DNA of 64,000 nucleotides from Bacteroidia bacterium (GCA_041690035.1 JBDNFC010000060.1:12503-76502), one strand, 5' to 3'. Counted from the first letter of the stretch, positions 32,836-52,237 are shown. Numbers and translations are program-made. Notes: generated from the sequence alone by a model not told the origin.

Positions 32836-33294
32836 ATGGATATAGATAAATATTATTTATTAATAGAAGAATCTTTGAAACACTTAGGCCTAAATCCTGA
32901 TGAGGCAAGGTGTGCAGAAGCTGGGCAGTGGTTAGTTTTTAGATCTGATACAGAAATATACATAGATGTATGGAAAGAACAAAACTTAAATGAATGGATG
33001 TATTATCCTGATGCTGCCAATACATTTAATTTTCAGATAGCTGCTCCAATAAGCAAGTTACCATCAGCAGACAGGCGGCCTTATTTTTATGAAGACCTAT
33101 TGCAAATGAACCAAATGACCCAATATGCATCTTTCGTTATTAATAAAGAAGAAGAAATGGTGCTAGCAGTTTTTAGAAGAGTAACAGAAAATTTAGATAA
33201 AACTGATATTATAGAAAGCATAGAAGCAGTAGGTTATTATGCAGAATTGGCTTGGAAAATGTTGAATCAATCTTATGATTTAAGAAAACCGTAA
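32836..33294 (+). CDS. Hypothetical cytoplasmic protein, possibly YbjN-like
   Basis: The 152-aa ORF has no strong motif. The YbjN suggestion is a weak resemblance only. Confidence 0.35.
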   Translation: MDIDKYYLLIEESLKHLGLNPDEARCAEAGQWLVFRSDTEIYIDVWKEQNLNEWMYYPDAANTFNFQIAAPISKLPSADRRPYFYEDLLQMNQMTQYASFVINKEEEMVLAVFRRVTENLDKTDIIESIEAVGYYAELAWKMLNQSYDLRKP

Positions 33295-33385
33295 AAAAAT
33301 ATATTTTTCAGGCAACCTTCTATTAAAAGCAATCGACTATAAGATAGATTAAAACCTTAAATAGGGTTAAAAATGAAAAAATTAA

Positions 33386-33925
33386 ATGCAAAACACTTTG
33401 AGCGAGCAAGAATTAATAGCGGCATGCAAAGAAGGCAAAAAATTTGCTCAAGAACAATTTTTCAAAATAAATGCCAATAAGATGTTTGCAGTTTGTCTTA
33501 GATATACCAACACCAGAGAGGATGCAGAAGATGTATTACAAGAGGGATTTATAAAAGTTTTTAAAAACCTAAATAAGTTTGAAGCAAAAGGTTCTTTAGA
33601 GGGTTGGGTACGCAGAATTTTTGTAAACACAGCTATAGAGCATTATAGAAAAAATGCAAAATGGCAATATGCAGAGGATGCTCAAAATGTGGTTTTAGAT
33701 AGTGGAGATATCTCTATTTTACATAAACTAAAAGCAGATGATTTATTGCAATTAGTGAGTAAACTGCCATTAGGTTACAGAACAGTGTTTAATATGTTTG
33801 CGATAGAGGGATTTGCACATCAAGAAATTGCCAAAACATTAAATATTTCAGAAAGCACCTCAAAAACACAACTTTTTAAAGCCAGAGCGGCCTTACAACA
33901 AATGATAAAAAAAATTGGAGAATAA
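33386..33925 (+). CDS. ECF-subfamily RNA polymerase sigma-70 factor
   Basis: It has the region 2 motif EDAEDVLQEGFIKVF and a region 4 HTH, and is 179 aa. Confidence 0.88.
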   Translation: MQNTLSEQELIAACKEGKKFAQEQFFKINANKMFAVCLRYTNTREDAEDVLQEGFIKVFKNLNKFEAKGSLEGWVRRIFVNTAIEHYRKNAKWQYAEDAQNVVLDSGDISILHKLKADDLLQLVSKLPLGYRTVFNMFAIEGFAHQEIAKTLNISESTSKTQLFKARAALQQMIKKIGE

Positions 33926-35150
33926 AGATAATATATCGCAATTTGATACCCTTTTCAAAGATGCATTGCACAATCACAGTGTAGATGCACCTTCAGGATT
34001 ATTTCAAAAAATTGACACTAGTATATCGAAAGGGGTGGCTAAATCTATTCTTATCAAAAAAACCATTATTACTTTGATATCTGCAACAATTGCGGCAGGC
34101 GGCCTTGTATTATACAATCAAATTTCCGAAAAAAACAATGATTTAGAAAAAACTAATTCCTCAAAAAATATTATAACCAATGAGGGTTTGAACCCAATAG
34201 CAAATAATATTGAACAAAAAAATATACAAACTCTAGATAATATCAAGCAAAATAATCTGGAAGAATACCATAGCAAAGAAGCAAAAAAAATTAAGCATTT
34301 TGGATTACCAAATATCAATATGCCTGACAATGAAAGCCCTTTTGAGGAAAACGATTATAAATCTGGTAAAAATTTAAACCCCACTTATCCTTCAAAAGAT
34401 GCTGAGGGAAGCAAGCAATACGAAATTATAATTATTGGAAAAGCTTGCGTTCATCAATATATCACGTTAAACTTAGCCAATTTTAACCAAGAAATTGTTT
34501 ATTGGAGTATTAATGATGAGCTGATACAATCTGACAATCAATTGCGCTATTTAATAGAAAAAGAAGGAATCTATGACATTAAAGCCCGCTACCAAAACAA
34601 GATTATTGCGCGTGAAAAAATAGTTGTTAATGGTGTTGCCGCAAAAGTACAAAAAACATCATTTACAGAAGAAACCACAGTGCTAAAAGCAACAATTAGC
34701 GGCTATAAAAACATGTTTTGGACAGCAGATGGGAACATTATTGGCACAGACATGAAGTTAATTATAGATAACAAACTTTATAGAGAAATGCCCTATTTGG
34801 TAACCACAGATATAAATGGTTGTATAGACAGTTTTTATGCGGAAGATCAAACAGAAGCCCCAAGGGTTCATTTTAGCAATCAAAATATTATAACACCCAA
34901 TGAAGATGGCAAAAATGATTACTATGATTTTGAAATTGCAAACGTATTTTATTATAATTTAAGCATATTTGATATCAAAAACAACCTTGTTTATACCACC
35001 AATGACCCAAAAAATAATTGGGAAGGGAAAAATATGATAACTCAAAATATAGCCATTGATGGCCTGTATTTCCTGAGATTTAGCTACCAATTAACCAAAA
35101 ATGGTGATATTCAAAATAAAATAATTAAACTAACATTAAAAAAAGAATGA
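33915..35150 (+). CDS. Anti-sigma-factor-like single-pass membrane protein with a T9SS type B C-terminal domain
   Basis: It overlaps the sigma gene by 11 nt. It has a 48-aa N-terminal cytoplasmic segment followed by a TM helix, TIITLISATIAAGGLVLY. The C-terminus, ITPNEDGKNDYYDF...YNLSIFDIKNNLVY...WEGK, matches the gliding-motility-associated type B sorting domain. Confidence 0.6.
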   Translation: MENKDNISQFDTLFKDALHNHSVDAPSGLFQKIDTSISKGVAKSILIKKTIITLISATIAAGGLVLYNQISEKNNDLEKTNSSKNIITNEGLNPIANNIEQKNIQTLDNIKQNNLEEYHSKEAKKIKHFGLPNINMPDNESPFEENDYKSGKNLNPTYPSKDAEGSKQYEIIIIGKACVHQYITLNLANFNQEIVYWSINDELIQSDNQLRYLIEKEGIYDIKARYQNKIIAREKIVVNGVAAKVQKTSFTEETTVLKATISGYKNMFWTADGNIIGTDMKLIIDNKLYREMPYLVTTDINGCIDSFYAEDQTEAPRVHFSNQNIITPNEDGKNDYYDFEIANVFYYNLSIFDIKNNLVYTTNDPKNNWEGKNMITQNIAIDGLYFLRFSYQLTKNGDIQNKIIKLTLKKE

Positions 35151-38100
35151 AAAATATAATAAAAACCCCCTATGTTTGTAAACTGTTGATTAATCAAGAA
35201 AAAACCCTTAATATGATGAAAAAATACATTTATAAATTATTGATACTTACATTTTTTGTAATGTCGAGTGTCAAATTATCTGCGCAAGTAGTAATTACCT
35301 ACAGTGGTGATCCTTGTGAAGGAACTACCATTACATTTTTTGCAAACAACCCTGGTGGAACTTATGCATGGAGTTTTGGCGATGCTGGCAGCAGCGCATC
35401 TACACAAGAAAATCCAACTTTTAGTTATCCTACAGCAGGTACATTTACTGTAACCCTTACCGTAACAAAAAATGGTGTGCCACAAACCGCTTCTGTATCC
35501 ATTACAGTTAATCCTAAACCCGTGGTTGTGCTTGCGCTAGAAAAACAAGTAGTTCAATGTTTTATAGGTAATAAATTCTGTTTTAGAGATAGCAGCTATA
35601 GTAAGGCAGGCGGTATATGTAAAATCAAATATGTATGGAGTGATGGAACAGGAGACGAAATTAATAACCCTACTTTTCCTAGAACAATTTGCAAAACTTT
35701 TACCATCAACGCTCAACAAACAACTAAATATAGCCTAACTGTAGAAATTACAGATTGTAATGGCTGTATTGAGAAGAAAACTTTCACTGATGTTGCCGAA
35801 GTTTTAGCAAATATTGGATTAGATTTTTGGGGAAACAGACCTAGAGGTTGTGACTCTGTTTTAGCTAAGTTTGTCAACAAATCTTTTGTCCAACAATCTG
35901 ATGTTAAAAGATTTATTTGGTTTTTTGGTGATGGCACTGTGGACTCTACAAGTTGGGCGGCAGGAACCGATACCTTAAAACATTGGTACAAAATTCAAGG
36001 ACCAAATAATGGAAACTTTACAACAAAATTGTATGTAGAAACCTTTACAGGTTGTAAAGACACTTTTATTTATAATGCTTCTGCTACCAACTTCATCATC
36101 AAACCACGTATTTTTGCTTCAAAAGATTCTACTTGTATAAGTGATCCAGAAATAGAGTTTGAACTAAGAGACGGACCTCCAAGAGCTACTTTAAGCGGAT
36201 TTTTATGGAATTTTGGTGATAACCTAATGGATAGGATATGCTCTGGTTGTAACTACAATAACACAGATTATCCAACAGCTAGTAGGGCATTTGGAGGATT
36301 AGGACCTTTTCAAGTATCGCTTACATTTATACACAATGTCTGCGGCACTAGAACTATTTATGATACGATTCAAATAATTGGGCCACAAACTATATCGGAA
36401 AACCCACCAGCTGGAATCTTAATACCAAGAGATGAAAGATATCAATGTTTGATACAAGACTCTATACATTTTCCTAATATATCTGTTTTTTATCATAATG
36501 ACAGAAACTTTTGGAATGATGATAGCACCTATGATATAAATTTGGGTGTAGAAATTGGACATAAATTTTTACCAAATCAAAAATCAAAAGCATTGCTGCA
36601 AAACAGACTTAAAGAAAATGTATATCGGTTATGGAACTTTGATGACACTTATGCACCTCAGTGTACAACAGATACAAGAGGGGGTAAAAATGTAGGCAAA
36701 AACTGTGCATGGTCTATGGATTCTATTCCAGTGCATTGGTATGTAAATTGGGATACAATTATGGCTTATGACAGAATAAGACCAATGAATATAGGCGTAT
36801 TTAATAATTCTACAAAAGCATGTTCTAGAAGACAAGTATGGTATAGTGATTCTGTGGCAATAATAAGGTATGTGAGTCCTTTTGTTGGAACAGACTCTTT
36901 GGCACAAGGATTTTATCCAGCAGGTGGGATATATGCTATTCGCAATGCAATGGTTCCAAGAGCAGATTCGCTTACTTTAGATACCATACCGTGGCCATTT
37001 TACAAACCAGGATATCACACCTTAGTGAAAAAAGAAAAATATGATCAAGTGCAGCCAGGTGATTCTATAAGTAAGGAACTTTATAGAAGGTTATTTTTTA
37101 ATACTGTAGTAAGATGCTATCAAGTGGATTTATTTCATAAAGATACTATTCACCCTCTTGAATGTGAGCATAGATTACCAAGTCCATTGTCATTGGCGCT
37201 TAATCCACCAAATGCAAAAGGATTAAGATGGAGCGGTGTTCGTTGTTTAGCTCCTCCATCACCGCCCTATGGTATAGTATTTAATGTTAGCCAAACAAAG
37301 CCAGGTTGCACACAAGATGAATTAAAGTTTAATTTTGACTCTGCATCAGGAAAAAACAATTGGGTAGCAATGATAGGTGGCTTATTCCCTGGTTCTTCAC
37401 CTCCTCCACCTCCTATTCCGGTATTGCCTTATGTGCCTCAGGGACAATTTCCTACCTCGTTTGTATATTTATACACTGCAAATAATTATGCCGATAAAAA
37501 GAATGGCTGGGTAACTGTTGGCTTAATTGTTGGCAATGGTATAACTACAACAAAACCATGCTACGATACTATTTTTTATCATAGAATGCTGCGTTTTAAA
37601 TTTGCCGACCCTAAATTTACAATAGAAAGACCATTGGCAAGAGCACAAGATGATAAGGCAATATGCAGATACGATACTGTATACTTTAGAATGAATGATA
37701 TTTTGCAGCCTGATGTAGAGTTGTTTTCTTGGACTTTTGATGATGGCGACAGAATAACTGAGGTAAAAAAATCTTATGATACTGCACAAAAAATGAAACA
37801 ATACTTTTCGCAAAGAATCGCAAATATCGAAAAATACTTAAGCGATACGGCAGATTTAGACGGCAGATTATCACCATGGGCGGCTTATCAAGATTCTGTG
37901 AAAAAAGGCTGGACAGTAGCAAGAACATTCACTAAACTTGATTCGTTTAATTTTCACAAAAAATTGGCCTATCCTAGAGATTCAATCAAAAAATGGCTAG
38001 ATAGTCCAAATGTACTAATTGGGTGGCTTGTAATAGAGAGACAAATTAACAATCAAAAAGTGTTTCAGAAGCAAAAAGGTTTGCCTGTTGCATTTACAGA

Positions 38101-40381
38101 GAGATTCTTTGACACCTTTTTAACAAGTTTAGTAACTAATTATAAAACCAATACTATTTTGGCACCAGAGATAACGCCACTTATTATTAATATATTTACT
38201 CAATTAGGTTTTGATTATTTTGATATACCAAATGATAAGATAGCAGATTTCTTTGGCCCTCCCGGAAGTGGAAGATGTATAGATACCACAGGATACTCTA
38301 GCTTTATTACTTTTGAATATGAAGAAGTAGATTCATCTGGCATAAAAATATTAAGCAGTAGAGATACCAATATTATTAGAAATTGGAGACACAGGTATGA
38401 TGTAGCAGGTATAGTGGCACCGTTAACAGTAACAAGAACAAGATTAGATGGTTGTGTACAATTTTCTTCTAAACAACTTAAAGTAGGTTTTGGAAAAGAG
38501 ATTGTTTTAAGTGATTCTGTATTATGTCAGGGTAGCGAAATATGGGGATTAGCCAATTATTGGTACTGGTCTACTCTAGACCCAAGAGAAATAACTGATG
38601 CCACAGATTACTGGAGAGATAATACTAGAATTGTAATTCCAAAAGAGAGGATAACACGCTGGGATTGGCACTTAGGAGATGGATTTGGTTTTAATACTAG
38701 CAGCGATTATGCAGGTACAGGATTAGGATTTAACCCGCCAGGTTTCAACAGAAATAGATTTTCTGGACCATTACCACCCGAATTGAGAATTAATAAAAAC
38801 TTAACAAGTGGTATAAAGCTTGGCGATGCATCTACCATTTATTATAAATCACCTGGTGTTTTTGAATTAGGAATACTTGCAGTAGACTCTAATGGCTGCA
38901 GAGATACCACTAAGCAAAATATTTATGTAACGAAAGTAACTGCAAAATTTGCTTTTGATCAAAAACGTCCACAGTGTAAAACGATTGTGGAATTGTTAGA
39001 CAGCTCTTTTGTAACTGATGGATGCAAAATTGCAGGATTTGCAAATTGTGACTCAATCATGGAATGGACAATAGATTGGGGTGATGGAACGCAAATTGGT
39101 GGAAAAAACAATCAAAATAGGTTTGACAGATTCTTCCATGATTATACTAGAAATGGAATATTTGAAATAAAATTGACTGTAAAAACACTACTAGGATGTG
39201 TGGATTCATTCAAATTAATTTTTGAAATACCTGGACCTAAACCGTTCTTTGAACCTTCCACATTGCGCATTTGTGTAAAAGATAGTGTTAGATTTGCAAA
39301 TAAATCTTTTAGGCCAAGTAGTTCTGCTTTATGGATATTTAATTTCGGAAATGGAGAAGTAGAAAGCTCTAAAGATTCTGCTAAAGTATTTGTTAAAGCC
39401 TATAATAAACCTGGATTTTATGAAGTTTATTTAACACAATTTGACTCAATACAGGGAACTACTAAATTTTGCCCAGCAACTTATCCTGACACTACTGGTG
39501 GACAACAGCAAAAAATAATTATTGAAGTAGTAGCCGAAGATAGCACTAACTTGATAGCTGATGATACAATTGTGTGTAAAGGTCAAGTAATTAATTTTGC
39601 AAATACAACTAGAAACAAAGGCGATACTACTTGGGTATCCTATAAATGGATATTTGATATTGACAACACAGGCGGTGATTCTGTAACAAGTCCAGATAGT
39701 TTCATCAACTATGCATATAGAAATTCTGGAGTATATAGAGTAACGATGGTTCCAGAATATATAGGCACTATTGCATTACCACATTGCCCATACAGAGATA
39801 CAATTACCATTTATGTAGATACGCTCAAGGCAAACTTTACTGTAGACACTACTAAAAGCCCTGACATGCAATTTAATAACACTTCATTTAATAGCACAAG
39901 CTATAGATGGTGGTTCTTATACAAGGACTCTACTATAGCGAGAGAACTATCTGATGGACAACCTGCGATGAGCACAGACAAGGATCCTAAATTTACATAC
40001 GATAGTTTGGGATGCTATTATGCTGTGCTTGAAGCAACAAGTCCAGATGGATGTAAAGACACAACTATTCAATTAGTATGTAATACATTTAGGTTTATTA
40101 TTAAAACTTATAATGTGTTTACCCCGGGTGTTGATGGAACTAATGATGTATTTGATATTCCGATTGAGGGACATGACCAATACGAAATTGTAATTTACAA
40201 TAGGCACGGAACTAAAGTATTTGAAAGCAATGATGAGAAAGTAGATTGGAATGGTAAAATGTTTAACACAGGACCAGCTGCTACTAGTGGAGCTTACTAT
40301 TATGCATTGAAATACAGAGAAAAACGTGGAAATCAAGAAGAAAAAAGATTGTTTGGCGTAATTACTTTACTGCGTCCATAA
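35147..40381 (+). CDS. A 1744-aa secreted PKD-repeat protein with a T9SS type B C-terminal sorting domain
   Basis: It has a signal peptide; the likely true start is MMKKYIYKLLILTFFVMSSVKLSAQ at about 35213. It has PKD motifs (WSFGDAGS...TVTLTVT, WHLGDG, WGDGTQ) and a poly-Pro linker, SSPPPPPIPVLP. The C-terminus, YNVFTPGVDGTNDVFDI...IVIYNRHGTKVFES...WNGK, is the type B domain. Confidence 0.8.
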   Translation: MKNIIKTPYVCKLLINQEKTLNMMKKYIYKLLILTFFVMSSVKLSAQVVITYSGDPCEGTTITFFANNPGGTYAWSFGDAGSSASTQENPTFSYPTAGTFTVTLTVTKNGVPQTASVSITVNPKPVVVLALEKQVVQCFIGNKFCFRDSSYSKAGGICKIKYVWSDGTGDEINNPTFPRTICKTFTINAQQTTKYSLTVEITDCNGCIEKKTFTDVAEVLANIGLDFWGNRPRGCDSVLAKFVNKSFVQQSDVKRFIWFFGDGTVDSTSWAAGTDTLKHWYKIQGPNNGNFTTKLYVETFTGCKDTFIYNASATNFIIKPRIFASKDSTCISDPEIEFELRDGPPRATLSGFLWNFGDNLMDRICSGCNYNNTDYPTASRAFGGLGPFQVSLTFIHNVCGTRTIYDTIQIIGPQTISENPPAGILIPRDERYQCLIQDSIHFPNISVFYHNDRNFWNDDSTYDINLGVEIGHKFLPNQKSKALLQNRLKENVYRLWNFDDTYAPQCTTDTRGGKNVGKNCAWSMDSIPVHWYVNWDTIMAYDRIRPMNIGVFNNSTKACSRRQVWYSDSVAIIRYVSPFVGTDSLAQGFYPAGGIYAIRNAMVPRADSLTLDTIPWPFYKPGYHTLVKKEKYDQVQPGDSISKELYRRLFFNTVVRCYQVDLFHKDTIHPLECEHRLPSPLSLALNPPNAKGLRWSGVRCLAPPSPPYGIVFNVSQTKPGCTQDELKFNFDSASGKNNWVAMIGGLFPGSSPPPPPIPVLPYVPQGQFPTSFVYLYTANNYADKKNGWVTVGLIVGNGITTTKPCYDTIFYHRMLRFKFADPKFTIERPLARAQDDKAICRYDTVYFRMNDILQPDVELFSWTFDDGDRITEVKKSYDTAQKMKQYFSQRIANIEKYLSDTADLDGRLSPWAAYQDSVKKGWTVARTFTKLDSFNFHKKLAYPRDSIKKWLDSPNVLIGWLVIERQINNQKVFQKQKGLPVAFTERFFDTFLTSLVTNYKTNTILAPEITPLIINIFTQLGFDYFDIPNDKIADFFGPPGSGRCIDTTGYSSFITFEYEEVDSSGIKILSSRDTNIIRNWRHRYDVAGIVAPLTVTRTRLDGCVQFSSKQLKVGFGKEIVLSDSVLCQGSEIWGLANYWYWSTLDPREITDATDYWRDNTRIVIPKERITRWDWHLGDGFGFNTSSDYAGTGLGFNPPGFNRNRFSGPLPPELRINKNLTSGIKLGDASTIYYKSPGVFELGILAVDSNGCRDTTKQNIYVTKVTAKFAFDQKRPQCKTIVELLDSSFVTDGCKIAGFANCDSIMEWTIDWGDGTQIGGKNNQNRFDRFFHDYTRNGIFEIKLTVKTLLGCVDSFKLIFEIPGPKPFFEPSTLRICVKDSVRFANKSFRPSSSALWIFNFGNGEVESSKDSAKVFVKAYNKPGFYEVYLTQFDSIQGTTKFCPATYPDTTGGQQQKIIIEVVAEDSTNLIADDTIVCKGQVINFANTTRNKGDTTWVSYKWIFDIDNTGGDSVTSPDSFINYAYRNSGVYRVTMVPEYIGTIALPHCPYRDTITIYVDTLKANFTVDTTKSPDMQFNNTSFNSTSYRWWFLYKDSTIARELSDGQPAMSTDKDPKFTYDSLGCYYAVLEATSPDGCKDTTIQLVCNTFRFIIKTYNVFTPGVDGTNDVFDIPIEGHDQYEIVIYNRHGTKVFESNDEKVDWNGKMFNTGPAATSGAYYYALKYREKRGNQEEKRLFGVITLLRP

Positions 40382-40401
40382 CATCAATAAAAATTTAATA
40401 A

Positions 40402-40436
40402 AAAAGCCAAGCAATATTGCTTGGCTTTTTTATTTT
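40402..40436 (+). terminator. Rho-independent terminator after the giant T9SS cargo gene
   Basis: A perfect hairpin, AAGCCAAGCAA-TAT-TTGCTTGGCTT, is followed by TTTTTTATTTTT. Confidence 0.7.
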
Positions 40437-40515: not shown

Positions 40516-41292
40516 ATGGTGAATTCTGATTTATCAAAAATATTTTTGCGCCTTGTAGATGTGATGGCAGAACTGCGTGAGAAATGTCCTTGGGATAAAA
40601 AACAAGATTTTAGTTCACTTAGACATCTTACAATTGAAGAAACATTTGAATTATCAGAAGCCATATTAAATGAAAACCCTGAAGAAATAAAGGCAGAATT
40701 GGGTGATGTATTATTACATATTGTGTTCTATGCTAGATTAGCAGAAGAAAAAAAATGGTTTACAATGCACGATGTTATTCAACATTTGATAGCAAAATTA
40801 ATACGCAGGCATCCCCACATTTATGGCGATGAAATAGCCAATGATGAAGATGCAGTAAAACAAAATTGGGAAAGGATAAAACTGGCAGAAAAAAATCCTA
40901 ATAATAAGGTTGGATTATTACAGGGAGTTCCCAAAGCATTGCCAAGCATAGTAAAAGCATATAGAATGCAAGAAAAAGCTGCCCAAGTTGGTTTTGACTG
41001 GAATAATAAAGAAGATGTGTGGGCAAAGGTAAAAGAGGAGTTGCTAGAATTTGAGCAAGCAAAAACAAGCAACGAAAGAAAAGAGGAGTTTGGAGATTTG
41101 ATGTTTTCGCTTATAAACTTTGCTAGATTTGAAAAAATAAATCCTGACGATGCATTAGAAAGTACAAATAAAAAGTTTAAAAAGCGTTTTGAATTTATAG
41201 AAACACAAGCTGCAAAAGAAAACAAAGCATTAAAAAACCTCAGTTTAGCAGAAATGGATATATGGTGGAATGCCGCAAAAAACGAATCTTAA
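40516..41292 (+). CDS. mazG: Nucleoside triphosphate pyrophosphohydrolase MazG
   Basis: It has tandem MazG domains with ELGDVLLHIVFYARLAEE and EFGDLMFSLINFARF. Confidence 0.85.
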   Translation: MVNSDLSKIFLRLVDVMAELREKCPWDKKQDFSSLRHLTIEETFELSEAILNENPEEIKAELGDVLLHIVFYARLAEEKKWFTMHDVIQHLIAKLIRRHPHIYGDEIANDEDAVKQNWERIKLAEKNPNNKVGLLQGVPKALPSIVKAYRMQEKAAQVGFDWNNKEDVWAKVKEELLEFEQAKTSNERKEEFGDLMFSLINFARFEKINPDDALESTNKKFKKRFEFIETQAAKENKALKNLSLAEMDIWWNAAKNES

Positions 41293-41296: not shown

Positions 41297-42472
41297 ATGA
41301 TAGAAAAAGATAAGTATGACATTAGGGGCGTATCCTCGCAAAAAGAAGATGTGCATAATGCAATAAAACACTTAGATAAGGGATTATATCCCAATGCTTT
41401 TTGTAAAATAATTCCTGATATTTTAGCCAACGATAAATTATATTGCACAATAATGCATGCTGATGGTGCTGGCACAAAATCTTCTCTAGCCTATTTATAC
41501 TGGAAAGAAACAGGCGATTTGAATGTTTGGCATGGAATAGCACAAGATGCAATAGTGATGAACATAGATGATTTACTTTGTGTGGGTGCAACAGGCCCTT
41601 TTTTGCTCAGCAGCACAATCGGCAGAAACAAACATTTGATACCAGGCGAAGTAATTGCTGAGATTATAAAAGGAACAAATATTTTTATTGATAAAATGCG
41701 TAATCAAGGAATAGAAATTATTTTAACTGGAGGTGAAACAGCTGATGTTGGAGATTTAGTAAAAACAATTATTGTAGACTCAACCATAATAGCTAGGATG
41801 CCTAAAAAAGATGTAATAGAAAACAATATTGCTGCAGGACAAGTAATTGTTGGTTTTGAAAGCTGTGGACAAGCCTCTTATGAAGATACTTATAATGGCG
41901 GAATGGGTAGCAACGGCCTTACATCTGCAAGACATGATGTTTTTAAGAATAGTTATGCTCAAAAATATCCTGAATCTTATGACAATAGCTTGCCTGCCAA
42001 TGTAGTGTACTGTGGTAGTAAAAATCTGCTTGATCCAACAAGTTTAGCTGGCATTGATGCAGGAAAAATGGTGTTATCCCCAACGCGAACTTATGCTCCG
42101 TTGATGAAAAAAATGCTCAATCTTTACCATTCAAAAATTGAAGCCATTATTCATTGCAGTGGTGGAGGGCAAACAAAAGTATTGCATTTTACTACTAAAC
42201 CAGTTCATATTATAAAGGATAAGCTATTGCCAATACCTCCACTATTTGAAATGATAGAAAAAGAAAGTGGCACACCAATTAAAGAAATGTTTAAAGTATT
42301 TAATATGGGGCATCGATTAGAAATATATACTGATGAAATAACTGCTGAAAAATTAATAACCCTGTCTAAAGAATTCAATATTAAATCACAAATTGTTGGT
42401 AAAGTTACCTCTTCTGTTAAAGAGAATTCATCTTTAACAATAATTTATAAAGGTTTGGAATTAAATTATTAA
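41297..42472 (+). CDS. AIR-synthase-related (PurM-like superfamily) protein
   Basis: It has a PurM-like N-domain (ADGAGTK, DAIVMNIDDLLCVG) and a C-domain. The ORF-track start at 41270 overlaps mazG. Confidence 0.6.
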   Translation: MIEKDKYDIRGVSSQKEDVHNAIKHLDKGLYPNAFCKIIPDILANDKLYCTIMHADGAGTKSSLAYLYWKETGDLNVWHGIAQDAIVMNIDDLLCVGATGPFLLSSTIGRNKHLIPGEVIAEIIKGTNIFIDKMRNQGIEIILTGGETADVGDLVKTIIVDSTIIARMPKKDVIENNIAAGQVIVGFESCGQASYEDTYNGGMGSNGLTSARHDVFKNSYAQKYPESYDNSLPANVVYCGSKNLLDPTSLAGIDAGKMVLSPTRTYAPLMKKMLNLYHSKIEAIIHCSGGGQTKVLHFTTKPVHIIKDKLLPIPPLFEMIEKESGTPIKEMFKVFNMGHRLEIYTDEITAEKLITLSKEFNIKSQIVGKVTSSVKENSSLTIIYKGLELNY

Positions 42473-42936
42473 GAAATTAGGTTTTGCCGTAATAAAAACT
42501 CTAATTGCTTATTGACTTTGGCCAAATTTTCGGTAAGAAGTTTGTTGCTTTCGCGTAAATCATAAATTTCGTAGGCGTTTTTTATCACAATGCGCAAAGC
42601 ATTTTCTTCCCAAGGTTTGGTTAAATAATGATAAACCTGACCCTTATTAATTGCATCTACTACGGCAGTAATATCAGTATATCCGGTTAATAAAATTCTT
42701 ACTGGTTGAGGAAATAAAGGTATAACATGCTCTAAAAATTCAACACCAGTCATATTTGGCATCCTTTGATCTGTAATAATAATTTCTACAGAGAGCCCGT
42801 TTTTTAACAACTCCATAGCCTCTGGCCCGCTCTCAGCTATAGTGATATCATAATCTCTTCTAAAGGTAGCCTTAAAAGAGTTTAGGTTGTTTACTTCATC
42901 ATCAACGTAGAGTACTTTTATTAACTTATCTGACAT
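42469..42936 (-). CDS. Response regulator with a receiver domain only and a C-terminal coiled coil
   Basis: It has VLYVDDE, the phospho-acceptor context IITDQRMP and LTKP, and is 155 aa. Confidence 0.8.
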   Translation of the reverse strand: MSDKLIKVLYVDDEVNNLNSFKATFRRDYDITIAESGPEAMELLKNGLSVEIIITDQRMPNMTGVEFLEHVIPLFPQPVRILLTGYTDITAVVDAINKGQVYHYLTKPWEENALRIVIKNAYEIYDLRESNKLLTENLAKVNKQLEFLLRQNLIS

Positions 42937-43008
42937 TATTATAGCAAAAGTAATCTTTTTTGTTAATATCCAAAATAAATTTGAAAAATTATAAATATTT
43001 TTAGATAT

Positions 43009-44067
43009 TTGACCATTATTGGAGCAATGGAATATAAACCCATAAAATTTGGAAAAATAAATGATTTAAAGGAATTTGGGGAAAAAAATGCCTTAGTAAA
43101 AATAGATTTATTAGATTTATTAGATACGCAAATTAAAGATTTAATTAAAGTAAAGTATCCTTCGCATACCGATGCCCAATTAACAGATGAATTGGTGCGA
43201 TGGGAAAACACTATTTCTGCAGATTATGGGTCTATTTTTTATTATCCTTGGCAAAATAAGGCAGTAAAAATATTAGAAGAGGATGATTTTATTTGTTTGC
43301 GAACATCTAGAAATAAGTATAAAATTACAGCTGATGAACAAAGCACTTTAATGCAAAAACATATTGTAGTTCTCGGCATGTCTGTGGGCAAAGCTGTGGC
43401 GCAGATATGTGCATTAGAGCGAATATGTGGAAAAATTACCTTGGTAGATTTTGACGATTTAGATAGCTCTAATTTAAATAGAATAATGACACCGCTATTT
43501 AATGTAGGATTGCCAAAAGCAGTAATAACAGCTAGAGAAATTTCTGAAATTGACCCATACCTTGAAATAGCAATTGAATTAAAAGGCATAACATCAGAAA
43601 ATATGACGCAAGTTATAGGCAACAATATGCAAACTAATTTGGTGATAGAGGTGTGTGATAGCTTAGAAATGAAGGTAAAAACAAGGATGCATTGTCTTAA
43701 AGAAAAAATACCTGTAATTATGGACACAAGCGATAGAGGAATGATAGATGTGGAGCGCTATGATAAAAATATTTCACAAATATTTCATGGTTTGCTCAAA
43801 AACATTAACTTTAAAGGCTTTGATTTTAATAATAAGGAAAAAAAAATGGAACTATTGATATCAATTATAGATTTAGAAAAAGTAAGCGAACGCGGAAAGC
43901 AATCCTTATTTGAGATAGGCAAAACATTGAGAACATGGCCTCAATTGGCTTCGGACGTATTTATTGGTGCAGCAGCAACTGCAAGTGTTGCAAGGAGAAT
44001 ATTATTAGAACACAATGTAAACTCCAAGCGTTATTATTTTGATTTAGAAAAAACATTAAACAGCTAA
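43009..44067 (+). CDS. E1-like ThiF/MoeB-family adenylyltransferase with a roughly 120-aa N-terminal extension and no Zn tetrad
   Basis: It has a Rossmann-type loop VVLGMSVGKAV, the E1 Arg-finger motif LVDFDDLDSSNLNR, and a DCTDN-equivalent segment, NLVIEVCDSLEMKVKTRMHCLKEKIPVI. It lacks the CxxC...CxxC motifs. It starts at TTG, with an alternative ATG at 43027. Confidence 0.65.
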   Translation: MTIIGAMEYKPIKFGKINDLKEFGEKNALVKIDLLDLLDTQIKDLIKVKYPSHTDAQLTDELVRWENTISADYGSIFYYPWQNKAVKILEEDDFICLRTSRNKYKITADEQSTLMQKHIVVLGMSVGKAVAQICALERICGKITLVDFDDLDSSNLNRIMTPLFNVGLPKAVITAREISEIDPYLEIAIELKGITSENMTQVIGNNMQTNLVIEVCDSLEMKVKTRMHCLKEKIPVIMDTSDRGMIDVERYDKNISQIFHGLLKNINFKGFDFNNKEKKMELLISIIDLEKVSERGKQSLFEIGKTLRTWPQLASDVFIGAAATASVARRILLEHNVNSKRYYFDLEKTLNS

Positions 44068-44073
44068 AAAATT

Positions 44074-44787
44074 TTGAAAAATATTTACATTAGAGCATTT
44101 AGAGCGGTAGACGACAAAGAGGCCAGTCAAAAATTTGTTGATGGGCATAAGCGGGTTTTAGAAAATGTGGGCATTACAGAGGTAACATCCTCTAACAATG
44201 ACTGGATACATAATCCTGCTGTTTATGTAATATTAATAGAATCTGGGGATAGAAGCAAGGTATATGGCGGAGCGCGAGTGCATGTGGCAGATGGAATAAC
44301 GCAATTGCCTGTGGAAGAAGCAACAATGGAAATTGACCCAAAAATATTAGAAGTGGTTTCTAAACAAGTGCCTAAGGGCACTGGAGAAATATGTGGTCTA
44401 TGGAACTCTTTAGAGGTAGCGGGCTATGGTATTGGCAGCACCTATGCAATTCGTTCTGCTATTTGCATTTTACCAATGATGGGATTAGACACTTGTTTTG
44501 CCCTTTGTTCACCATACACAGCTAGAGTTGCGAAAAACTTTGGTTTTTTAATTGACAGAACTTTAGGAAATAATGGCACTTTTTATTATCCCAAACTAGA
44601 TCTATTGGCAACAGTGGTCTTTGTAGAAAACTCACTAACCCTAGAGAGTGCAGATCCAGAAGAAATAATTATCATCAATGAGTTGAGAAAAACACCAAAT
44701 ACAGAAAGGATAGAGCTGGGCAAAAAAGGTGAGGTACAGGTTATTTATGATTTGCAAGTAGATGCTCATCAACCCATTAATAGTTAA
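44074..44787 (+). CDS. GNAT-fold N-acyltransferase-like protein (autoinducer synthase / N-acyl amino acid synthase-like)
   Basis: The 237-aa ORF has GNAT motif-A-like EVAGYGIGSTYAIRSAI and an N-terminal F..GHKRVLENVGI segment reminiscent of the R..VF...LGW region of LuxI/NAS enzymes. It lies 6 nt after the ThiF-like gene. Confidence 0.4.
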   Translation: MKNIYIRAFRAVDDKEASQKFVDGHKRVLENVGITEVTSSNNDWIHNPAVYVILIESGDRSKVYGGARVHVADGITQLPVEEATMEIDPKILEVVSKQVPKGTGEICGLWNSLEVAGYGIGSTYAIRSAICILPMMGLDTCFALCSPYTARVAKNFGFLIDRTLGNNGTFYYPKLDLLATVVFVENSLTLESADPEEIIIINELRKTPNTERIELGKKGEVQVIYDLQVDAHQPINS

Positions 44788-44806
44788 TAAATAAACATAG
44801 GGCAAT

Positions 44807-46924
44807 TTGATGACAAAATTTAATAATTTTCTTATTCTATTTTTATTTATAGTTGTATCTAGAAATTCTATTAATGCACAAGAAATTTTCTATTTAAAGA
44901 ATAATCAAAACACTCTAGAAAATCCTGAAAAGCTGTTAGAAAATAATAACAAGTGGTCAAGAGTAGATGGGGTGGCAAATTTTGGACCAACCGAAAGTAC
45001 CAATTGGCTATATATAAAACTAGCACCATCAAGCAAGGTTAGGTTTTTAGAAATGGGAAACCCCATGCTTGATACTTTTTTTATTTATGGCTACAATCAA
45101 CAAAATCAACTCATATTTAATTATAAGCAAGGTAAGACATTTGATTTTGATAATAACAGGTATGCCAAAAATGTGCTTCCAAATTATATCATACCCTCTG
45201 ATATTGAAGGAGAAATAAAGCTACTTATAAAAATTCAGTCTACTTTTCAAACAAATGTACCAATCATGATATATAGTGAAGTGGAATATTTAGAAAAAGT
45301 GCAAGGTATTGGATACTTTGGTGGTTTATATTTTGGTATTTTGTTAGTAATGTTTTTGTATAATTTGTTTATATTTCTCTCTGTTAAAGACAGGGTATAT
45401 CTTTACTATTGCATATATATAGTGGCACTAATTGCAACCCAATTTGTGATACAAGGGTACGCAAAACAATATTTATTCTATGATAATACGATTATTAATT
45501 TATACACGACTGTTTTTTTTGGTGGTGCTTTGGGCATTGTAACTATTTTGTTTTCTGACAGTTTTTTAAGAACGAGAATCTATGCTCCAAAACTGCGTTT
45601 AGGATTAATTATTATTGGTTTTCTATGTTTAGGCGCTATAATTATTAACTTTTTAGGATTGTTTTTTATCGCATTTAACATCGTTAATATAACAATGGCT
45701 TTGGGTTCATTCTATCTACTTTCTGTAGCCATAGTTGTGTATTTGAATGGGTATAAACCAGCCGTTTATTTTGTAGTTGCCTGGGTTATTTTTTTAGCTG
45801 GTACTATCATATTTGTAATAAAAGATTATGGCTACTTGCCCTATAATGATTTTACTGTTTATAGCTATCAGGTAGGTTCTATTATAGAGGTGGTGATGTT
45901 ATCTCTGGCATTGGCAGATAGAATAAATGTATTAAAAAAAGAAAAAGAAAAAGAACAGGTAGAAAAGTTAATTGCATTAGAAACTAATGAGTCATTTATA
46001 AAAAATCAGAATATCTTTTTGGAGCAAAAGGTTCAAGAAAAAACAAGTGCATTAACCAATACAAATGAAGAGCTTAACAAAACATTAAGCCACCTTAAAA
46101 ACACACAAGTTTCGCTGGTGGAGAGTGAAAAAATGGCATCTTTGGGTCAATTAACAGCAGGGGTGGCGCATGAGATTAACAACCCTATCAATTTTGTATC
46201 TTCTAATGTAAAACCCCTTTACAGAGACATTGAAGACATCAATACTTTTTTAGAGGAATTTAAAATCCAGCATAGCAGCGATGCAGGCATAAACACTTCA
46301 AACCTTATGGAATTGTATAAAAAATTAGACTTAGATTATGCAAGAAAAGAAATAGATGAATTGCTAAATGGGATTAACGAGGGTGCTCAAAGAACTGCAG
46401 AGATAGTAAGGGGATTGAAAAACTTTAGTAGACTTGATGAAGCTGATTTTAAAACTGCAAGCATAGAAGAAGGTATAGAGTCCACATTAATTTTATTAAA
46501 AAGCAATTTAAAAGGCGAAATAGAGGTTGTTAAAGATTTTTGTTTATTGCCCGCAGTTGATTGTTTTGCAGGTAAATTAAATCAAGTATTTATGAATTTG
46601 ATTAATAACTCTATTTATGCAATTACACATAGAATTAAAGAGCAAGCAGCTATACCAGGATTGATTACAATAAAAACTACAGATTTGCCCGAGCACGTAA
46701 AAATTAGTATTAGTGATAATGGATGTGGAATGACTGATGATACCTTAAGAAAGTTATTTGAACCATTTTATACAACTAAGCCAGTGGGCGAAGGAACAGG
46801 TTTGGGGATGTCCATAACCTATAATATAATTAATGAGTTACACAAAGGAAAAATAGAAGTTAGCAGTGAGTTAAATAAAGGCACTATAATTGAAATAACT
46901 TTGCCGAAAAACTTAATAAGATAG
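44807..46924 (+). CDS. Sensor histidine kinase with a 7TM-DISM sensor domain
   Basis: It has a signal peptide, an extracellular domain and seven TM helices. The H-box is GVAHEINNP and the HATPase motifs are DNGCGM and GTGLGMSI. Confidence 0.85.
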   Translation: MMTKFNNFLILFLFIVVSRNSINAQEIFYLKNNQNTLENPEKLLENNNKWSRVDGVANFGPTESTNWLYIKLAPSSKVRFLEMGNPMLDTFFIYGYNQQNQLIFNYKQGKTFDFDNNRYAKNVLPNYIIPSDIEGEIKLLIKIQSTFQTNVPIMIYSEVEYLEKVQGIGYFGGLYFGILLVMFLYNLFIFLSVKDRVYLYYCIYIVALIATQFVIQGYAKQYLFYDNTIINLYTTVFFGGALGIVTILFSDSFLRTRIYAPKLRLGLIIIGFLCLGAIIINFLGLFFIAFNIVNITMALGSFYLLSVAIVVYLNGYKPAVYFVVAWVIFLAGTIIFVIKDYGYLPYNDFTVYSYQVGSIIEVVMLSLALADRINVLKKEKEKEQVEKLIALETNESFIKNQNIFLEQKVQEKTSALTNTNEELNKTLSHLKNTQVSLVESEKMASLGQLTAGVAHEINNPINFVSSNVKPLYRDIEDINTFLEEFKIQHSSDAGINTSNLMELYKKLDLDYARKEIDELLNGINEGAQRTAEIVRGLKNFSRLDEADFKTASIEEGIESTLILLKSNLKGEIEVVKDFCLLPAVDCFAGKLNQVFMNLINNSIYAITHRIKEQAAIPGLITIKTTDLPEHVKISISDNGCGMTDDTLRKLFEPFYTTKPVGEGTGLGMSITYNIINELHKGKIEVSSELNKGTIIEITLPKNLIR

Positions 46925-46928
46925 TAAA

Positions 46929-48023
46929 ATGATGCAAGAACAGCAAATAAAGGTACTTTACATAGATGATGAAAGAGAAAACTTGAACGGATTTTATGCA
47001 AGTTATAGAAGAGATTTTAATATACAAACAGCCATAAGTGCAGCTGAAGCAAGAAAAATATTAAAAGACGATTGGTTTCATGTTATATTGGCAGATAATA
47101 GAATGCCCGAAGAGTCTGGTATTGAGTTTTTAACAGATTATTTAAGAATAAACCCTAAGCCAATAAGAATTTTAATAACTGCACAAACAGATGTAAAAAC
47201 AGTAATTGAAGCCATCAATGGAGGGCAGGTATTTAAGTATATAGAAAAACCCACAGCGGATCAAACCTTAGAATATTCAATCAGAGAGGCGTATCAATTA
47301 TACCTAACAAGAGAGCAATTAGAAATTAGAAACAAAGAACTAGAAAAGGCAAATATGGAACTAGATAAGTTTATATATTCTGCTTCGCACGATTTGAGAG
47401 CTCCAATATTAAGCATATTAGGTTTAACAAAACTGAGTGTTCAAGATCAAATAAATAGTGCCAAATATCTATTAATGATAGAGAAAAGTGCTGAAAAGCT
47501 AGATACTTTTATACTTAATTTAATACAATACTATAAAAATGCCAAACTAGAAGTGTTTGCAAAATCCATCAATTTGGCAAGTTTGGCGAAAGATGTATTT
47601 GACAATGTGCTCTATTTTGACGGAGCCGACACCTTGGATTTTAGCGCTGAATATATCGCTGAACAAAGAGATTTTATAACAGATAAAACAAAGTTGAGCA
47701 TTATATTTAATAATCTAATTACTAACTGTATTAGGTATAGAGATAAAAAGAAATCCAAAAATTATTTGAAAATTTCGTTTGAAATAAAAGAACAATATTT
47801 ACAAATAAAAATTATGGATAATGGAATAGGTATCGAGTTAGAAAATATTCCAAAAATTTTCACAATGTTTTATAAAGCGTCTAAAAATTCTCAGGGCTCG
47901 GGAATTGGTATGTATATTGTGAAAGATGCAATTGAAAAACTAGGTGGCAAGATACAGGTTGAATCTATTTTGGGAGAATATACCCATTTTATTATAGATA
48001 TTCCAGAATTGCACCTTAACTAA
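46929..48023 (+). CDS. Hybrid protein with an N-terminal receiver domain fused to a histidine kinase core
   Basis: It has the receiver motifs VLYIDDE and ILADNRMP, the HisKA motif SASHDLRAPI, and the HATPase motifs DNGIGI and GSGIGMYIV. Confidence 0.85.
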   Translation: MMQEQQIKVLYIDDERENLNGFYASYRRDFNIQTAISAAEARKILKDDWFHVILADNRMPEESGIEFLTDYLRINPKPIRILITAQTDVKTVIEAINGGQVFKYIEKPTADQTLEYSIREAYQLYLTREQLEIRNKELEKANMELDKFIYSASHDLRAPILSILGLTKLSVQDQINSAKYLLMIEKSAEKLDTFILNLIQYYKNAKLEVFAKSINLASLAKDVFDNVLYFDGADTLDFSAEYIAEQRDFITDKTKLSIIFNNLITNCIRYRDKKKSKNYLKISFEIKEQYLQIKIMDNGIGIELENIPKIFTMFYKASKNSQGSGIGMYIVKDAIEKLGGKIQVESILGEYTHFIIDIPELHLN

Positions 48024-50284: not shown

Positions 50285-52237
50285 TTACTGTTTTTCAAAA
50301 ATAACTTGCAAATCTTTTAATAAATATGCTGCATTATAAACTTCAAGAAAATTATCAATTTCTTTTTTGTTAAAATTTGCCTTAAAAAAAGATTCTTTGA
50401 TAGTAAGTTCTAATCTATTACCAAGTAATTTGGCACTCATTTCAAAAATCATTGCATTTTTTAATCCGTCAGCGGTAAATGTTTTATTTAGATTTAGATT
50501 ATTTAGGTTGCTCACTTTATAACCTGCAGGAATGCCTATACTTATAGTTTTTAACTTTACATGTCCATAATCTACGTCTGGATTGCCAATATTTTTAGGC
50601 TTTTCTTGTATTTTTTTTGAATCATTAATAAAACTACCTACATTTAGTGCAATTTTATTGCCATTTTCTGCAACAACAGATTTAGATGAAAAGGAATACC
50701 TCACTCCTACAGGATTTTCTAAAACAGACTTGTCAAGTTTAATACTATCCAAATCACCTTCAATAAAAACAGCATCATCCAAACGGTATTTACACAGGCC
50801 TGTAAAGAGATCTTCGCGGCCTTCATAGTCAATATCTTTTAGGAAATCATGATAGGATATGGCATTGTAACCCCCTATTTTTTCCTCAATTTTTATTATG
50901 GCATTTTTTGTGTCTTCTAAATTGATATCTACATTTTGAGTAACAAAGTTTTTATTTGCGGGTAGGCCAGGTATAGAATCTATATAAGCCTTTGCTGCTT
51001 TAAAATCATTAACCCCGAACTCTGTAAAAAATACGGCATTGCGCTCTCTAAATGATGGGTTAAACAAATTCATAGGTTTATTTACATTATTTGGCATAAT
51101 AAAACCCTCATGCACCGGAAAATAAAACAACATTTCACCGATATAGGTAAGATTTTCATAAGTTTGATCAAAGGGAACATAAAACCTAGAAGTCATAAAA
51201 CATAGTTCGTATTTTATATCAAAATGGGTGAAAAAAGCAGCATAAATTTTTGCAATCACATTGCTAGATCCCCTTTTATTTTTCAGTGCAATTTCTAAAT
51301 CATTACCAGAAAAATACGATCTTTTAAACTCCTTTTTCATATACTTTTCTATTTCTAGAATTAGGTCTAAACCACTTTTTTTGGTAAACAATTTATTCTT
51401 TTTTATAAAGTTTTTGATGATTTTTTTTTCGTCATCAGTAGCAGTCATCACAGATTTATATTTTGCTTTTGCTTCTGCTGAATAATTCAATAATTCTTCG
51501 GTTTTACTTCTTAAATTATTTTTATATAATTTGTAGATAAAACTAACTCTATTGGCATTGGTAGCTGTTATTGCAGATTTAAAAAAAGCAGGTGTTTCTT
51601 TGATATTTACTGTTAGGTATTTTTTATCATCGCTTTCATCAGCCACAGCATCAGGACAACCGTTAAAACCCACTGCCTTAAATTCTAGATGATCTGGAGT
51701 GATAATATTGTACTCATAATTATACAATGGTACAAATTTTTGAATAAATTCTACTCCAAAAAAATCATCATTAGAAATGGAATACCTTTTAGAAACACAT
51801 ATATACTCTAGCTCACAATTAGAGTCTAAATCTTCTATAGCGCCATTGTTGCTATAGCTATCATCATCATCATTCGTTTTTTTAATTGTGCTGTGGTCTG
51901 CTATTGTGCCATCAGCCCTAATTATTCTATACTGCAATTTATTAATCTGCCCTTCCTGTTTAATTTTTTTAAATTCATTAATTCCTTTCATATTGCTTAT
52001 TCGCACAAATGCATGCACTGCAATGTATGACTCTAATTCATTTTTTGTTTTATTCATAAATAATTGATGATTTTCTTCATAGCTTCTAAAATGATAATCA
52101 AAGTTTTTTAAATCTTCTTCATTGCAAGTGTCCATGGCTGTTTTTTTGGAGAGTTTCCAATCATCATGATCTAATATTTGTGCATCGGTAAAAAAAACAA
52201 TTGCACAGAAAATAATGGTTAATGGTATTTTTTTCAT
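50285..52237 (-). CDS. Secreted hypothetical protein of 650 aa (DUF3857-like?)
   Basis: It has a signal peptide, MKKIPLTIIFCAIVFFTDAQ, and no catalytic motif was recognised. It is translationally coupled by a 4-nt overlap to the upstream MORN-repeat gene. Confidence 0.5.
   Translation of the reverse strand: MKKIPLTIIFCAIVFFTDAQILDHDDWKLSKKTAMDTCNEEDLKNFDYHFRSYEENHQLFMNKTKNELESYIAVHAFVRISNMKGINEFKKIKQEGQINKLQYRIIRADGTIADHSTIKKTNDDDDSYSNNGAIEDLDSNCELEYICVSKRYSISNDDFFGVEFIQKFVPLYNYEYNIITPDHLEFKAVGFNGCPDAVADESDDKKYLTVNIKETPAFFKSAITATNANRVSFIYKLYKNNLRSKTEELLNYSAEAKAKYKSVMTATDDEKKIIKNFIKKNKLFTKKSGLDLILEIEKYMKKEFKRSYFSGNDLEIALKNKRGSSNVIAKIYAAFFTHFDIKYELCFMTSRFYVPFDQTYENLTYIGEMLFYFPVHEGFIMPNNVNKPMNLFNPSFRERNAVFFTEFGVNDFKAAKAYIDSIPGLPANKNFVTQNVDINLEDTKNAIIKIEEKIGGYNAISYHDFLKDIDYEGREDLFTGLCKYRLDDAVFIEGDLDSIKLDKSVLENPVGVRYSFSSKSVVAENGNKIALNVGSFINDSKKIQEKPKNIGNPDVDYGHVKLKTISIGIPAGYKVSNLNNLNLNKTFTADGLKNAMIFEMSAKLLGNRLELTIKESFFKANFNKKEIDNFLEVYNAAYLLKDLQVIFEKQ

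Follow-up and report, generated by a model that had tools for sequence, protein, structure and literature searches.

Organisation of the locus

The DNA analysed here is a window of 64,000 nucleotides (nt) from a Bacteroidia bacterium (GCA_041690035.1 JBDNFC010000060.1:12503-76502); all coordinates are given on this full stretch, and the feature under study occupies positions 33386-40381. It comprises a gene for an extracytoplasmic function (ECF) sigma factor, a gene for a membrane-tethered protein of 411 amino acids (aa) ending in a type IX secretion system (T9SS) C-terminal domain (CTD) of type B, and a gene for a secreted giant of 1744 aa. An original prediction, made from the sequence alone, had proposed that the middle protein is an anti-sigma factor whose activity is coupled to T9SS engagement. 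The follow-up supports the first half of this proposal: judged from its sequence and that of its relatives, the 411-aa protein is very probably the cognate anti-sigma factor of the adjoining ECF sigma factor. That its CTD truly engages the T9SS is held with moderate confidence, and we infer that the two activities are coupled. The three open reading frames (ORFs) were confirmed exactly where they had been predicted, and are listed below together with the parts of the middle protein.

33386..33925, + strand: ECF (group IV) sigma-70 factor, 179 aa; Sigma70_r2, Sigma70_r4_2 and TIGR02937 above cutoffs
33915..35150, + strand: 411-aa anti-sigma-like membrane-tethered protein with a type B T9SS CTD; TTG start
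33927..34016, + strand: cytoplasmic head, aa 5-34, candidate sigma-binding segment; predicted amphipathic helix; NISQFDxLFKxxLxxH..AP.G.F
34053..34115, + strand: single transmembrane (TM) helix, aa ~47-67; read as a signal anchor, N-in
34116..34409, + strand: disordered low-complexity linker, N/K/E-rich, ~100 aa; long enough for crossing the periplasm
34416..34844, + strand: two immunoglobulin (Ig)/PKD-like beta-sandwich domains, aa ~168-310; conserved C178, W197, W269 and C303
34881..35138, + strand: type B T9SS CTD (CHU_C), aa 323-408; PF13585
35147..40381, + strand: 1744-aa secreted giant; signal peptide from M23 (35213), PKD repeats, ~750-aa centre, type B T9SS CTD

As had been stated in the original prediction, the 411-aa gene overlaps the sigma gene by 11 nt, its TTG start lying inside the end of the latter. 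No Met occurs before residue ~135 of the 411-aa protein, and the N-terminus is real coding sequence.

Architecture of the 411-aa protein

The protein consists, in this order, of a conserved head (~35 aa), one TM helix, a disordered linker, two Ig domains and the type B CTD. Just one strongly hydrophobic segment is present (aa ~47-67, the Kyte-Doolittle maximum of the protein), and the 46 aa that precede it are conserved, hydrophilic and without signal-peptide features, which bears out the predicted topology of a short cytoplasmic segment plus a single TM helix. The closest relative, P0002, shares 30% identity overall and ~60% over residues 1-35 (NISQFDxLFKxxLxNHxVxAPxGxF). Classical class I anti-sigma factors possess an N-terminal domain of ~80-90 aa, often with an HxxxCxxC motif. 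The 411-aa protein departs from this classical or zinc-binding type (zf-HC2, RskA, RseA), with no Cys before residue 178 and a cytoplasmic part of ~46 aa.

An AlphaFold2 (AF2) model was built with 40 family members, an alignment of two sequences having given a predicted local distance difference test (pLDDT) score of 32 only. In this model, head residues 6-19 form a helix (pLDDT ~83), the linker is below 50 for residues 33-159, and residues 165-411 exceed 90 and fold into three beta-sandwiches. Foldseek on the model retrieved generic tandem Ig repeats only, the top matches being the Aureispira grappling-hook protein GhpA; the Ig region matched Pfam PKD_3 below threshold, and a sequence search of the PDB with the family profile gave no match. 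As for the CTD, it scored 40.4 bits on PF13585 (CHU_C) against a gathering score of 27, and its hallmark positions (P328, D331, G332, N334, D335, W369, G371, G383, Y385 and Y391) are invariant or nearly so in the family. The CTDs of this type align block by block with those of cargo proteins and form a lineage of their own, apart from the cargo CTDs.

Family size, topology and conservation

An exhaustive HMMER search of 1.84 billion cluster representatives returned 7305 matches, mostly generic CHU_C proteins. Among the best 150 of these matches, 121 share the N-terminal motif followed by the hydrophobic segment, and the family thus defined is composed of at least 121 sequence clusters with the head-helix-linker-CTD plan. 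Word-indexed searches yielded 2 matches with the full protein, 2 with the N-terminal profile and 12 with the 40-member profile, most of them generic CHU_C proteins. In public annotation, the members appear only as 'gliding motility-associated C-terminal domain-containing protein', 'PKD domain-containing protein' or 'hypothetical'. For one member of the P0026 cluster, the deposited record names a cyanobacterium, Oscillatoria amoena NRMC-F 0135 (MDL5049692.1); a Bacteroidota metagenome-assembled genome (MAG) contains an almost identical copy, and the cyanobacterial record is probably a contaminating Bacteroidota contig.

Concerning topology, the hydrophobic segment of the 121 members starts at a median residue of 56 (range 41-89) and is 18-20 residues long, while the net charge is about +1.0 in the 12 residues before it and about -0.75 in the 12 residues after it. 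The late start and the positive-inside bias are incompatible with a standard Sec signal peptide; together they form the signature of a predicted N-in signal anchor, and the original prediction, which had preferred such an anchor to a cleavable signal peptide, holds for the window protein (segment start at residue 47) as for the family. Three size classes were distinguished (~280-300, 340-365 and 400-490 aa), which differ in how many Ig domains they contain; in all of them, the helix and the first folded domain are kept apart by 63-208 aa (overall median 119).

Conservation is uneven along the protein. In the 40-member alignment, the N-terminal motif (40.9% mean pairwise identity) and the CTD (37.0%) rank highest, followed by the TM helix (27%), the Ig domains (~20%) and finally the linker (11.7%). 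With the head and the CTD best conserved and the linker least, selection acts mainly on the two ends, a pattern expected if these ends are interaction surfaces.

Gene context in related loci

The gene context of the family was compiled from exact-protein look-ups, two genome-contig loci, 15 metagenome loci (found with an N-terminus-only query) and the window; loci are designated below by L numbers. The scan of genome contigs had recovered true members in 2 of 80 loci (L034 and L038), the remainder having matched a generic TPNGDGxN CTD pattern. An orthologous ECF sigma gene was found immediately 5' of the gene for the TM-CTD protein in all 26 loci with upstream context, the junction being an overlap of 1-26 nt, an abutment or a gap of at most 4 nt. 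This pairing persists at only about 20-30% identity among the TM-CTD proteins.

Downstream, a large gene follows the TM-CTD gene in each of the 16 loci whose contig extends that far, and in 14 of these 16 its product carries a T9SS CTD, of type B in 13 cases and of type A in one (L038). Twelve loci encode a type B giant of ~1750-2010 aa (the window, L001, L003, L004, L085-L087, L091, L093, L094, L096 and L101), and the thirteenth, L034, a type B protein of ~1200 aa, called as two ORFs. In L038 (6317-11335; uncultured Bacteroidales MAG), the gene after the sigma/TM-CHU_C pair encodes an N-acetylmuramoyl-L-alanine amidase of 959 aa, which bears a PKD domain as well as a type A CTD (Por_Secre_tail), so that the type B anti-sigma-like protein is paired there with a type A cargo. 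In L102 and L104, the downstream PKD-repeat genes end at the contig edge before any C-terminus. The sigma/TM-CTD pair is kept in all four of these divergent loci (L034, L038, L102 and L104). Lack of conservation of the triplet of sigma factor, TM-CTD protein and large cargo had been named beforehand as a result that would speak against the original prediction; the triplet was found conserved in relatives of 24-30% identity.

Sigma factor and transcription signals

The sigma factor (33386-33925) matched Pfam Sigma70_r2 (60 bits, residues 27-91) and Sigma70_r4_2 (54 bits, residues 119-170), as well as TIGR02937 (95.5 bits vs. a cutoff of 42.9). It possesses only the sigma-2 and sigma-4 domains within ~180 aa, which places it in the ECF (group IV) class. 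No specific NCBIfam equivalog was reached, the PG0214/GFO_1088 model giving 88 bits vs. 130 and TIGR02985 86 vs. 126. The signals and the additional gene found around the three genes are the following.

32836..33294, + strand: 152-aa cytoplasmic protein, conserved directly 5' of sigma in one large sub-clade
33312..33339, + strand: ECF-type promoter candidate, GCAACC-N15-TCGACTA, ~46 nt 5' of the sigma ATG
35170..35189, + strand: conserved DNA element CTATGTTTGTAAACTGTTGA, past the 411-aa stop and ahead of the start of the giant's signal peptide
40400..40431, either strand: palindromic GC-rich hairpin with A and T runs at its sides; bidirectional intrinsic terminator at the operon's end

Upstream of sigma, a motif composed of a GCAAC[CG] -35 box (ACAACC in L001), 15 nt and an nnn[T/A]C[T/G][A/T] -10 box was found at the same place in the six loci compared. 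In the 64-kb window, searched throughout and notably ahead of the giant gene, it has no other + strand copy, and one further match lies on the - strand, inside metH. This ECF-type architecture 5' of sigma, with AAC in the -35 box and a -10 box of the CGT/C type, implies that the sigma factor is autoregulated from the candidate promoter at 33312-33339. On the + strand, no terminator-like site occurs within 33386-40381, the first one being the strong hairpin at 40400-40431, just past the giant gene; the sigma, TM-CTD and giant genes can therefore form one transcript.

The 20-nt element at 35170-35189 reads CTATGTTTGTAAAyTGTyGA and is kept between the window and L001 (~3172-3191) although the flanking DNA is not; weaker counterparts are present in L003 and L004. 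It lies within the 5' end of the longest giant ORF, ahead of the signal-peptide Met. The housekeeping -7 box of Bacteroidota, TAnnTTTG, is contained in it, so the element may act as an internal promoter, and the giant gene may thus have a promoter of its own besides the ECF one.

The giant cargo and the 152-aa protein

The 1744-aa giant contains six PKD stretches and ends in a CTD that scored 64.7 bits on CHU_C and 38.3 bits on TIGR04131 (cutoff 35). Its longest ORF shares an ATGA start/stop overlap with the 411-aa gene, in agreement with the overlap noted in the original prediction. A typical signal peptide starts at M23/M24 (35213), however, so the real start of the giant may lie 62 nt past the 411-aa stop. 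Collinear orthologues with 28-58% identity along the whole length were found in L001, L003, L004, L085, L091 and L094, the six loci compared with the window. The centre of the giant, ~750 aa (window 36500-38800; aa ~460-1230), has no Pfam match, yet it is conserved and collinear in the orthologues; a proline-rich PPSPPYG...PPPPPIPVLPYVPQG stretch of this centre is common to the window and L001.

The 152-aa protein was found, with a local profile, upstream of sigma in 18 related loci (L001, L003, L004, L101 and 14 of the 15 metagenome loci L085-L099), whereas its gene is absent from the divergent loci L034, L038, L102 and L104. The orthologues measure 152-155 aa (L001 835-1290; L003 6940-7404; L004 6948-7412; L085-L098; L101), and the eight that were aligned share 35-56% identity with the window copy. 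Only sub-threshold matches were obtained for this protein (Pfam CesT_Tir_1, E 6e-4; PDB 2plg, E 0.05), and a fold of the type III secretion chaperone/YbjN kind is possible. As delimited by sequence conservation, the module is one of four genes, including this one, which the original prediction had missed.

T9SS context

A T9SS is supported in this genome by a PorU2-type sortase and several CTD proteins, the core gld/spr genes lying outside the window. The sortase (16768-21906, + strand, 1712 aa) reached 681 bits on NF052324 (cutoff 450) and possesses a Peptidase_C25 domain and a weak type A CTD; accA is next to it on the other strand, and no porV-like gene is adjacent.

No member of the PorP/SprF family, the usual partners of type B cargo, was found in Pfam scans of 43 ORFs of the window, nor did the hallmark motif ([FY][ST]Q[YF]...NPA[YL]) have any match when the 64-kb window was scanned in six frames, or at the other loci of the module. 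As a positive control, the same motif scan found PorP/SprF-like genes directly 3' of five ordinary type B genes at unrelated loci. The absence of such a gene nearby, as predicted, is thus confirmed, but the weight given to it as unusual is not. In Flavobacterium johnsoniae, 3 of 12 type B substrates are 'orphans' (Fjoh_1123, Fjoh_1720, Fjoh_4934), served by an unlinked SprF-like shuttle, Fjoh_1677 (PMC12618676), and because such orphans are documented, a missing PorP/SprF neighbour is not anomalous. These orphans resemble both CTD proteins of the module in having no adjacent porP/sprF-like gene; they differ from the 411-aa protein in their normal signal peptides and in having no link to a sigma factor.

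Comparison with known systems

No anti-sigma factor with a T9SS CTD came up in searches of the literature. The closest known system, compared by its published description, is the Dma family of Bacteroidota (Pardue et al. 2024, PMC10927553), anti-sigma factors that span both membranes and whose genes lie behind those of ECF21 sigma factors. In this family, the N-terminal 40 aa of Dma1 suffice to pull down the ECF21 sigma factor Das1, and Dma1 is described with a helix in the inner membrane, a periplasmic region that is intrinsically disordered, an outer-membrane module at its C-terminus and proteolytic fragments that depend on the growth phase (PMC10927553). Both families are restricted to Bacteroidota and encoded directly 3' of an ECF sigma gene in one operon; in both, a cytoplasmic head of ~40 aa precedes a single helix in the inner membrane, and a long disordered region in the periplasm leads to a C-terminal module directed to the outer membrane, and for both a release of the sigma factor by proteolysis is proposed. 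The differences lie at the C-terminus, where Dma has an eight-stranded OMP_b-brl_2 barrel and the 411-aa family has Ig-Ig plus a type B sorting domain (PF13585), and in the operon, which holds NigD-type genes for Dma and a giant T9SS cargo here. A sorting domain instead of a barrel suggests delivery through the T9SS rather than through the beta-barrel assembly machinery (BAM). Without the C-terminal barrel, the 411-aa family is not Dma as defined, though it plausibly works alike; the new element, as read from the domain matches, is the T9SS sorting domain that replaces the beta-barrel. The original statement that no such mechanism is described therefore holds for the sorting domain, but not for the plan up to the linker, which the Dma anti-sigma factors share.

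FlgM, the anti-sigma factor of sigma-28, is exported by the flagellar type III system. The likeness resides in an anti-sigma factor that bears an export signal, and in a working machine that removes the inhibitor and so licenses late, expensive substrates. FlgM is, however, small, soluble, unfolded and fully secreted, whereas the 411-aa protein, with its predicted inner-membrane anchor, would depend on cleavage or on proteolysis induced by tension; the two cases also involve different secretion systems and sigma classes, and there is no homology. A looser precedent is provided by the PorA - PorXY - SigP pathway of Porphyromonas gingivalis, where a CTD protein signals via PorY/PorX to the ECF sigma factor SigP (PMC7712824). 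There too, a protein with a T9SS CTD reports the state of the surface or of the T9SS to an ECF-sigma pathway, but PorA is secreted as a protein of its own, has a signal peptide and a CTD of type A, and acts by a two-component route, whereas here the CTD and the presumed sigma-binding head stand on one polypeptide.

In the FecA-FecR-FecI system and with the SusC-linked anti-sigma factors of Bacteroides, an event at the outer membrane reaches an ECF sigma factor via a single-pass anti-sigma factor and regulated proteolysis; PMC10927553 treats these systems as well. Signalling across the envelope through a single-pass inner-membrane anti-sigma factor would be common to these systems and to the 411-aa protein, for which no FecR match was obtained in Pfam and no TonB-dependent receptor gene was found in the module. 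The 411-aa protein differs in fusing the presumed sensor and the anti-sigma factor, and its outer-membrane partner would be the T9SS.

Proposed mechanism and alternatives

The composite explanation towards which we lean, by analogy with Dma and with moderate confidence, is that of a cognate anti-sigma factor, Dma-like in plan and delivered by the T9SS. The arrangement of the genes and the promoter motif suggest a joint synthesis of the sigma and anti-sigma factors, driven by an autoregulated ECF promoter. If the binding of Das1 by Dma1(1-40) is taken as a guide, the conserved N-terminal helix of ~35-40 aa would hold the sigma factor at the inner membrane, where the single helix is predicted to anchor the protein N-in, and the disordered linker, of ~100 aa or more, would cross the periplasm. 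The T9SS translocon and an unlinked shuttle of the PorP/SprF type would recognise the CTD, so that the tail would be kept at the outer membrane or passed through it, with the head remaining cytoplasmic. Engagement or pulling by the T9SS or the gliding track, or surface contact of the Ig domains, might then expose the linker to cleavage; intramembrane proteolysis would come next and free the sigma factor, which would raise expression of its own operon, including the co-transcribed, adhesin-like giant T9SS cargo. The sign of the signal could be either, activation following successful engagement or failed engagement. As a net effect, such a checkpoint would match a very costly cargo to a working secretion route. 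A more specific version can be offered only tentatively: the CTD would be captured by the translocon and an SprF-like shuttle on the moving GldK track, and tension on the tether would lead to proteolysis and release of the ECF sigma factor, as in a FlgM-like checkpoint on secretion and motility. It is equally tentative that, on this GldK track, the trigger would be secretion or track activity, or else surface contact of exposed Ig domains.

Several observations weigh against the composite explanation. The head has no Pfam or NCBIfam match at E values up to 10, zf-HC2, RskA and FecR all being absent; of the profile searches proposed with the original prediction, those with anti-sigma models (RskA, zf-HC2) thus gave no match. 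On TIGR04131, which had been proposed as well, the CTD of the 411-aa protein reached 25.5 bits, under the cutoff of 35, so the type B call rests on Pfam and on the family-level conservation of the hallmark positions; for the 'bona fide' type B domain claimed at the outset, the two models thus disagree. A test for a shared shuttle or gene conversion, in which the anti-sigma CTD was compared with that of the adjacent cargo, gave 21-41% identity, a range also seen between genomes; with no within-genome likeness, there is no sign of one specific common shuttle. The housekeeping-like element ahead of the giant in this sub-clade means that expression of the giant may not depend strictly on the ECF sigma factor. 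It is a rule of the field that all T9SS effectors carry an N-terminal cleavable signal peptide (PMC12618676). Judged from hydropathy and position, the 411-aa family has no N-terminal cleavable Sec signal peptide and, read in this way, breaks that rule for T9SS substrates. All members come from uncultured organisms, and the anti-sigma assignment is for every one of them a prediction from sequence. Nor is the translocon known to handle a substrate tethered to the inner membrane.

Some of these points would be accounted for if the protein were a true anti-sigma factor whose CHU_C-fold domain is a periplasmic sensor or binding module that never enters the T9SS, the protein then not spanning both membranes. 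Such a module might respond to CTD cargo that accumulates in the periplasm, or bind a periplasmic component of the T9SS and not itself be transported. The TIGR04131 score of the window protein, the separate lineage of the anti-sigma-type CTDs, the lack of a PorP/SprF gene nearby and the need for cleavable signal peptides ascribed to T9SS substrates would all fit. We nevertheless regard it as unlikely, because all the generally conserved positions of type B CTDs are kept, at a mean identity of 37% that is far above that of the adjoining Ig domains, because a linker of ~100 aa or more is present in every size class and is hard to explain next to the inner membrane, and because the Dma precedent indicates that anti-sigma factors of Bacteroidota can reach the outer membrane.

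Signal peptides with a conserved N-terminal extension are known from other secretion systems, as in the extended signal peptide region (ESPR) of autotransporters. An ordinary type B cargo with a long conserved 'extended signal peptide', cleaved after the hydrophobic segment and adjacent to sigma through co-regulation only, would find in them a parallel, and it would agree with the small residues (AAGG, AGG) within the hydrophobic segment and with the likeness of the Ig-Ig-CTD remainder to a small cargo. This reading is improbable, since the hydrophobic segment, with its start between residues 41 and 89 and its length of 18-20, is followed by N/E/K-rich sequence without a conserved small-x-small site, and the N-terminal motif is the best-conserved part of the protein. 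Moreover, all 26 loci show the gene in overlap with the ECF sigma gene, in abutment or at most 4 nt away from it, the classic position of an anti-sigma gene, and the module encodes no separate anti-sigma candidate. Very improbable, finally, is a structural accessory that would tether or escort the giant through or at the T9SS from the inner membrane, its head binding the chaperone-like 152-aa protein instead of a sigma factor: the conservation of the latter protein in the same cluster, with its weak secretion-chaperone-like matches, and the strict collinear orthology of the giants speak for it, but L034, L038, L102 and L104 keep the sigma/TM-CTD pair without the 152-aa gene, the downstream cargo is clearly different in L034 (~1200 aa, two ORFs) and L038 (959-aa type A amidase), and the ECF promoter sits between the 152-aa gene and sigma.

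As regards the T9SS-delivered anti-sigma factor, the family joins a T9SS sorting domain and a presumed sigma-binding head on one polypeptide, predicted to be anchored in the inner membrane and encoded beside an ECF sigma factor, ahead of a large cargo. If the more specific version with the GldK track is true, the protein would be the first T9SS substrate that keeps an inner-membrane anchor. If the CTD is truly engaged by the T9SS, a direct route would lead from the secretion or gliding machine to transcription, the dual-membrane anti-sigma principle of Dma would extend to a second outer-membrane delivery pathway, and the question would arise of how the translocon deals with a substrate tethered to the inner membrane. 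What is known of how Bacteroidota adjust cargo expression to secretion capacity comes largely from PorXY-SigP of P. gingivalis. At least 121 clusters, now annotated as 'gliding motility-associated C-terminal domain protein', would be re-annotated as regulators.

Flanking genes

The module is flanked by housekeeping genes, with der, era and sucD upstream, and mazG and an AIR-synthase-like gene downstream. In the 64-kb window, neither Rfam models nor a tRNA search gave a match. Loose remnants of synteny were observed with the related loci: metH (window 12561-15215) adjoins the 3' side of the module in L003/L004 (~15300-17270), yet it lies 20 kb upstream in the window, while mazG (window 40516-41292) is directly 3' of the module in the window and two genes 5' of sigma in L102 (3960-4736).

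Further downstream, a cluster of signalling genes (42469-48023) encodes a stand-alone response regulator (42469-42936, - strand), a ThiF-family protein (43009-44067), a 237-aa ORF without assignment, a 7TMR-DISM histidine kinase (44807-46924) and a hybrid receiver/histidine kinase (46929-48023). Two big neighbours are located on the - strand at 50285-55626, namely a 650-aa ORF without a family match and a 1130-aa MORN-repeat protein with a weak LIC20035-adhesin-like match.

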